Below are positions 192 through 266 of a DNA stretch of 365 nt, piece by piece. The stretch's first letter is position 1, and every line of letters starts with the position of its first letter. The notes beneath the pieces were generated by a model. It saw only the letters and a program-made list of their open reading frames with translations. It did no database searches and was not told the DNA's origin. Source of the stretch: Escherichia coli (GTDB taxonomy: Bacteria > Pseudomonadota > Gammaproteobacteria > Enterobacterales > Enterobacteriaceae); the NCBI RefSeq assembly GCF_003334335.1, contig NZ_QOWQ01000204.1. The stretch is one strand, 5' to 3'. The position numbers and the translations under genes are program-made.

Positions 192-199
192 GGTATTTA

Positions 200-205
200 C
201 CTCTC
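200..205 (-). promoter_or_regulatory. Shine-Dalgarno ribosome-binding site for the CDS starting at 191
   Basis: Plus-strand cctctc at 200..205 is GAGAGG on the minus strand, followed by an 8-nt spacer (TAAATACC) and then ATG. This is a near-consensus purine-rich SD at good spacing. Confidence 0.6.
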
Positions 206-236
206 TGAGTCATGACGATGACACTGACAAATCAGG
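206..236. repeat. Cluster of short palindromes and 6-bp-period TGAC repeats in the 5' leader region; function unknown (candidate operator or leader RNA structure)
   Basis: Plus strand shows TGAGTCA (206..212, 7-bp palindrome), GTCATGAC (209..216, perfect 8-bp palindrome), TGAC at 213-216, 219-222 and 225-228 (6-bp period), and CTGAcaaaTCAG (224..235, inverted repeat). On the mRNA-sense minus strand, GUCAU-CGUC-AUGAC (222..209) can form a 5-bp stem with a 4-nt loop just upstream of the SD. Confidence 0.3.
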
Positions 237-266
237 TGATAAAGCGTAAAAGGCGCAGAATAGCCG

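Follow-up and report, generated by a model that had tools for sequence, protein, structure and literature searches.

The 75-nt gap at positions 266..192 (minus strand) of the window, the 365-nt stretch of Escherichia coli DNA that was analyzed, separates yeeR from irmA, two genes of the agn43(flu)-yeeR-irmA cluster on a CP4-44-type island. It holds no consensus promoter or terminator, and irmA is probably transcribed either by read-through across it or from a weak start within it, with the allele present in the window most likely depending mainly on read-through where the upstream operon is intact. Two earlier papers describe both the locus and how it is regulated (Moriel 2016, PMC4807369; Bernabeu 2022, PMC9431211). 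IrmA is a secreted E. coli interleukin-receptor mimic and candidate vaccine antigen, and its link to antigen-43 phase variation, as against a promoter of its own, decides when the protein is made, a question that both papers have addressed. The present analysis adds that the window carries a near-silent promoter allele and that few strains, 40 of 5,426 genomes, have the allele with the autonomous promoter described in strain 042.

RefSeq annotation matches the borders of the gap exactly: the upstream coding sequence ends, and an IrmA-family coding sequence starts, at its two edges, with the yeeR stop (TAA, 269..267) upstream and the irmA start (ATG, 191..189) downstream on the same strand (Table 1). 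The yeeR coding sequence ends at the same point in the RefSeq records of strains 042, EC958 and CFT073, and in L001 and L013, two of the four genomes with an exact match to the window (L001, L011, L012 and L013). The upstream gene, named yeeR in both earlier studies (PMC4807369; PMC9431211), encodes an 838-aa product annotated as a hypothetical or membrane protein, which some records label as YeeR family. The full-length irmA product in matching genomes is WP_000581504.1, a member of the IrmA family that matches the PDB entry 5EK5 ('IRMA') with E = 2.8e-83. NCBIfam models gave zero matches to YeeR (838 aa; L013 6583-9099) and to IrmA (L001 8175-8630), and the function of YeeR is uncharacterised despite its place inside a studied operon. 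The window is present, at no less than 95% identity, in 2,195 of 5,426 complete E. coli genomes. Its neighbourhood has the gene order GTPase, agn43, yeeR, irmA, DUF905, DUF932, antirestriction, RadC/JAB, DUF987 and CbeA/CbtA, that of a CP4-44-type island. Short mechanical open reading frames of 32 aa (window 212-310, plus strand) and 46 aa (197-337, minus strand) run across the gap and show no sign of being genes.

Table 1. Features of the yeeR-irmA region, in window coordinates unless a genome is named
Feature	Position	Strand	Remarks
yeeR 3' end	267..365	-	Last 32 codons, translation ...LEEALPPELPA*; stop TAA 269..267
yeeR-irmA intercistronic spacer	192..266	-	75 nt; identical to the irmA_2244 gap of E. 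coli 042
irmA 5' part	1..191	-	First 63 codons, starts MIHLFKTCMITAFILGLTWSAPLRAQDQ; includes signal peptide MIHLFKTCMITAFILGLTWSAPLRA
Shine-Dalgarno-like GAGAGG	200..205	-	8 nt 5' of the irmA ATG; read from sequence
TTGTCA, -35-like	225..230	-	5.87 bits alone; best -10 partner CAGAGA, total 1.89 bits
Putative 5'-RACE start (+1)	244	-	Window base C; 042_4509, EC958 and CFT073 carry T
GCCTTTTA, counterpart of ACCTTTTA	247..254	-	G at 254, A in 4509
GCTATTCT	257..264	-	GC then TATTCT; 1 mismatch to the sigma-S extended -10 KCTATACT
Equivalent of the 88-bp lacZ fragment	210..297	-	promirmA fw 297..278, rv 230..210
IS66-family ISEc49 and IS21-family ISSso4-like elements	L001 238-5744; L011 and L012 1238-6744		Same orientation as irmA

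The study that gave irmA its name found agn43, yeeR and irmA to be co-transcribed, as determined by RT-PCR in an oxyR mutant of UPEC EC958, with the start mapped upstream of agn43, and showed that the cluster is repressed by OxyR (Moriel 2016, PMC4807369). Co-transcription in UPEC is driven by the OxyR/Dam-controlled agn43 promoter ~6 kb upstream of irmA (PMC4807369). In CFT073, IrmA is lost when an IS has inserted downstream of agn43a, even if a constitutive promoter is placed before agn43a, and the only copy that yields IrmA is the one in which no IS follows agn43 (PMC4807369). In these UPEC loci (EC958; CFT073 c1273-c1275) the genes come in the same order as in the window, and the spacer is likewise 75 nt long. 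EC958 and CFT073 c1275 have one gap sequence in common, which equals that of the window at 74 of 75 positions and differs only at 244 (T; C in the window), and the UPEC IrmA is WP_000581502.1.

A different result was obtained for the two irmA copies of EAEC 042 (Bernabeu 2022, PMC9431211). The start was placed inside the gap by 5' RACE for both alleles, and RT-PCR yielded a product with a primer inside the gap and none with a yeeR primer 686 nt 5' of the ATG (PMC9431211). Removing the promoter of flu_4511 left IrmA_4509 levels unchanged. In promoterless pUJ8-lacZ, an 88-bp fragment gave high beta-galactosidase activity in its 4509 version and much lower activity in its 2244 version; expression was reduced when allele 4509 was changed to the 2244 type at +1, -10, -19 and -20, single substitutions in 4509 having no significant effect (PMC9431211). 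The authors judged the -10 predicted by BPROM, probably the hexamer within GCTATTCT, to be too distant from the start, and suggested ACCTTTTA as the real -10 of 4509 (PMC9431211). The irmA_2244 copy is silent under most conditions, and its tagged form went undetected in an oxyR single mutant, being detected only when irmA_4509 had also been deleted (PMC9431211). The original prediction, that irmA is transcribed together with what lies upstream, accordingly stands for UPEC, where this is documented (PMC4807369), but it conflicts with the internal RACE start of the identical allele in 042 (PMC9431211). Its expectation that no start site lies within 192..266 fails for the same reason, the published start in the gap having been mapped for irmA_2244, identical there to the window (PMC9431211).

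Both 042 loci and the EC958 and CFT073 loci were aligned with the window; eight alleles were aligned in all. The irmA_2244 locus (EC042_2243-2244 spacer) is identical to the window at 75 of 75 positions in the gap and 364 of 365 overall, the one difference being synonymous and within irmA (window 78; A here, G in 042). It encodes the same protein, WP_000581504.1, and has the same synteny as the window-matching genomes; unlike three of the four exact-match genomes, it has no IS between agn43 and yeeR. The irmA_4509 allele, also found in 55989 and O104:H4, has the same position, architecture, 5' UTR and Shine-Dalgarno sequence as the window, together with strong promoter activity that is independent of the flu promoter (PMC9431211). 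It matches the window at 69 of 75 gap positions, with substitutions at window 264, 263, 254, 244, 231 and 209 (AG instead of GC at 264/263, A instead of G at 254 and T instead of C at 244).

The published mutagenic oligonucleotide that turns 4509 into the 2244 type has exactly the sequence of window 276..232. Since the allele differences at 264, 263, 254 and 244, in alignment columns 102, 103, 112 and 122, are spaced 20, 19, 10 and 0, only a +1 at 244 fits the published positions -20, -19, -10 and +1. On this comparison of sequences, the RACE start would fall at window 244 (minus strand) and give a 5' UTR of 53 nt, consistent with the RT-PCR product obtained with primer Int fw (window 230..211). 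The A at 254 in 4509 creates CACCTT at -11..-6 relative to this start, which has both of the critical -10 bases, an A second and a T sixth in the hexamer; CGCCTT occupies the same place in the window. The G at 254 may therefore remove the key -11 adenine, which would account for the weakness of the window allele. The putative Shine-Dalgarno sequence GAGAGG is unchanged in all eight aligned alleles. Substitutions among these eight alleles, a small sample, cluster in 245-266, the 22 nt after the yeeR stop that form the putative promoter core. The transcribed leader of 52 nt (192-243) is nearly invariant, with three variable sites in the same small sample. The primers promirmA fw and promirmA P1 of PMC9431211 read ...ATTACCCCGGAG, with four C where all genomes have five (window 287..283), probably through a text-extraction or typing slip.

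A consensus scan found no sigma-70-like sites in the window on either strand (shuffles expect 0.7). Scoring was extended with a rough -35/-10/spacer matrix of our own, whose hexamer frequencies follow the classical compilations and are approximate. As controls, rrn promoters reached 10.5-10.8 bits and the agn43 promoter (TTGTCC-17-TAGAAT) 11.9 bits. The best pair with its -10 between 300 and 195, TTTATC-17-CATCGT, scored 4.57 bits, which is the genomic background median and is reached by 52% of 4,710 random 106-nt windows from 250 kb of E. coli DNA. Starts of irmA-containing transcripts have been claimed for both the agn43 promoter (11.9 bits) and the gap (best site 4.57 bits). The gap holds no -35/-10 pair at 16-18 nt spacing that exceeds genomic background in the matrix, and none at this spacing that would place +1 at 244. 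With a score at the background median, the absence of a sigma-70-like site is real, yet it is expected by chance for any stretch of ~100 nt.

These scans bear out the original prediction that the gap lacks a convincing sigma-70 promoter. The coordinates it gave on the minus strand are all correct (TAA 269..267, ATG 191, the 75-nt gap, TTGTCA 230..225, TTTACG 250..245 and TATCAC 241..236), as are TCAGAG and CAGAGA at 16 and 17 nt downstream of TTGTCA. Its list of the best hexamers was accurate in what it quoted but missed TATTCT (262..257), the best -10-like hexamer of the gap, which scores 4.90 bits and has A as its second and T as its sixth base. TATTCT has no -35 partner in the matrix (best total -0.36 bits) and lies at -18..-13 relative to +1 at 244, which is too far; no good -10 hexamer was found ~5-9 nt before 244, TATTCT being the only good one. 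TTGTCA lies inside the transcribed 5' UTR, judged by the position of RT-PCR primer Int fw. The further suggestion of a promoter that could not be recognised by eye agrees in part with a non-canonical promoter in the gap; the alternative sigma factor proposed alongside it is hypothetical.

The matrix also failed to tell the strong allele, 4509, apart from the weak one, the top pairs being the same in eight of eight alleles. Being blind to this difference, it cannot see what makes the promoter work. The lack of an above-background sigma-70-like site in any allele, the 'active' one included, is in keeping with a gap that has no promoter at all, with the agn43 promoter as the sole source of irmA transcripts and a processing site of the polycistronic mRNA as the end at 244. 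The co-transcription shown in UPEC (PMC4807369) agrees with such an arrangement, as does the authors' judgement that the predicted -10 lies too far from the start; their RACE method is given by reference, with primary and processed 5' ends not distinguishable from the text (PMC9431211). It is nonetheless unlikely, given that the 88-bp 4509 fragment drives lacZ without a vector promoter and loses activity on four substitutions, that IrmA_4509 levels withstand removal of the promoter of flu_4511, and that yeeR-irmA RT-PCR is negative in 042 (PMC9431211). For the allele identical to that of the window, the published signs of promoter function are low reporter activity and a RACE start whose 5' end may be primary or processed (PMC9431211).

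Consensus strings of alternative sigma factors were scanned as well, with KCTATACT for sigma-S. The best matches to sigma-32, sigma-E, sigma-28 and sigma-54 had 6, 4, 8 and 4 mismatches, levels reached by 93%, 62%, 100% and 69% of background windows, respectively. A sigma-E-like GGAGTTA-16-TCTGC had been seen by eye; the best match in the scan, CGGAGTT-17-TCTGC, is shifted by one base and has 4/12 mismatches, as do 62% of background windows. An OxyR site in the gap was likewise considered by eye and dropped, as ATAA-N3-CTAT does not fit the ATAG-N7-CTAT spacing, and inspection by eye found no GATC within the gap.

The GCTATTCT element is closer to a consensus, its single mismatch sparing the -13 C typical of sigma-S and being attained by 4% of 139-nt background windows. 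It could form a sigma-S-type promoter without a -35, from which the common allele would be expressed mainly in stationary phase or stress; 042 expresses more irmA when carbon runs out and under nutritional stress, and the RNA for mapping was taken at OD600 2.0 (PMC9431211). Such a promoter is improbable. The weak allele has one mismatch and the strong allele (AGTATTCT) three, the reverse of the measured activities, and the mapped start is 13 nt past the hexamer, too far. Five sigma motifs were tried, so the 4% tail is not significant after correction. On the slim chance that the 'silent' common allele is a conditional -35-less promoter with the sigma-S-like GCTATTCT, most irmA-positive E. coli would restrict autonomous production of IrmA to stationary phase or stress, whatever the phase state of antigen-43, and the 'backup' expression of irmA_2244 in 042 would be explained.

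Searches for RNA features gave little signal. Terminator-like sites were absent from both strands of the window (shuffles expect 0.4), and an Rfam 15 scan of the window returned only a 12.9-bit snoRNA match on the opposite strand (gathering score 38, E = 2.6). The 53-nt leader together with the irmA start folds no better than shuffles (z = 0.52), and repeats in the window are limited to short matches of chance length.

Among the four exact-match genomes, L013 (window match 100%) is the one in which agn43 directly precedes an intact yeeR. A promoter scan of this extended upstream region gave a single strong promoter-like site for the coding strand, the agn43 promoter, ending ~226-228 nt 5' of the agn43 ATG (-10 end at 3107, ATG at 3340). 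Promoter-like sites on this strand total 8, against 4.9 ± 2.6 by chance. The five 9-of-12 matches in the interior of yeeR are at chance level, the nearest lying 1.15 kb 5' of irmA. Between the ATG of agn43 and the stop of irmA, the coding strand of L013 has no terminator-like site, and hence the sequence does not oppose read-through. The 5' leader of agn43 contains a terminator-like element (L013 3275-3302, plus strand), made up of a GC-rich hairpin of 12 bp, GCCGGTATCCACATCTGTGGATACCGGC, and TTTTTTATTC after it; it looks like a leader attenuator, one that would control read-through into yeeR and irmA as well. Directly 3' of the agn43 -10 there is a palindrome rich in GATC, AAACGATCGATAAAATAGGTATCGATCGTTT (L013 3109-3139), at the place expected for the Dam/OxyR phase-variation switch.

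In the other three exact-match genomes (L001, L011 and L012), IS66-family and IS21-family elements part agn43 from the 3' 2.26 kb of yeeR, with istB ending 97 nt before the yeeR remnant. Transcription of irmA at these loci might come from the IS elements, by read-through from istAB or from an outward IS promoter via the 2.26-kb remnant. The IS genes are co-oriented with the remnant and irmA, istB lies close by, and the gap is without a terminator. This source is very improbable in light of CFT073, where IrmA could no longer be detected once an IS had inserted downstream of agn43a, despite a constitutive promoter in front of that gene (PMC4807369).

The favoured reading, a spacer without a consensus promoter or terminator, would allow irmA to be transcribed by two routes. 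In the first, transcription would read through from the phase-variable, OxyR/Dam-controlled agn43 promoter ~6 kb upstream; in the second, it would initiate at a weak non-canonical promoter in the spacer, with a 5' end at 244 and a 53-nt leader. For translation, irmA would use a Shine-Dalgarno sequence of its own, GAGAGG (205..200). The window carries the common allele (GC at -20/-19, G at -10 and C at +1), in which the internal route is near silent. With an internal promoter so weak, read-through is most likely the main source of irmA wherever the upstream operon is intact, a weighting of the two routes that we infer for the window allele. In an oxyR mutant, agn43 should be derepressed. Against this weighting, 042 gave no RT-PCR product from yeeR (-686) to irmA with the identical allele, and irmA_2244 was undetected in the oxyR single mutant (PMC9431211); these negatives indicate that read-through is not efficient in every background. 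The IS elements in three of the four exact-match genomes also count against it, a comparable insertion having abolished IrmA in CFT073 (PMC4807369).

The frequency of the two promoter alleles was determined with a 45-mer, from -32 to +13 and equivalent to window 276..232, that was searched in 5,426 complete E. coli genomes. The strong 4509-type 45-mer is present in 40 of these, all exact and mostly 042, 55989 and O104:H4. For the window type, 1,020 genomes have an exact copy and a further 941 have one with 1-2 mismatches, the UPEC type included. The autonomous promoter is a rare allele, and nearly all irmA-positive complete genomes carry the near-silent allele or its 1-2-base variants. The rarity of the strong allele may reconcile the two apparently conflicting papers, with the operon model applying to most strains. 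A 106-nt query gave at least 99% identity to the window type in 1,332 of 2,106 records and to the 4509 type in 37 of 1,984.
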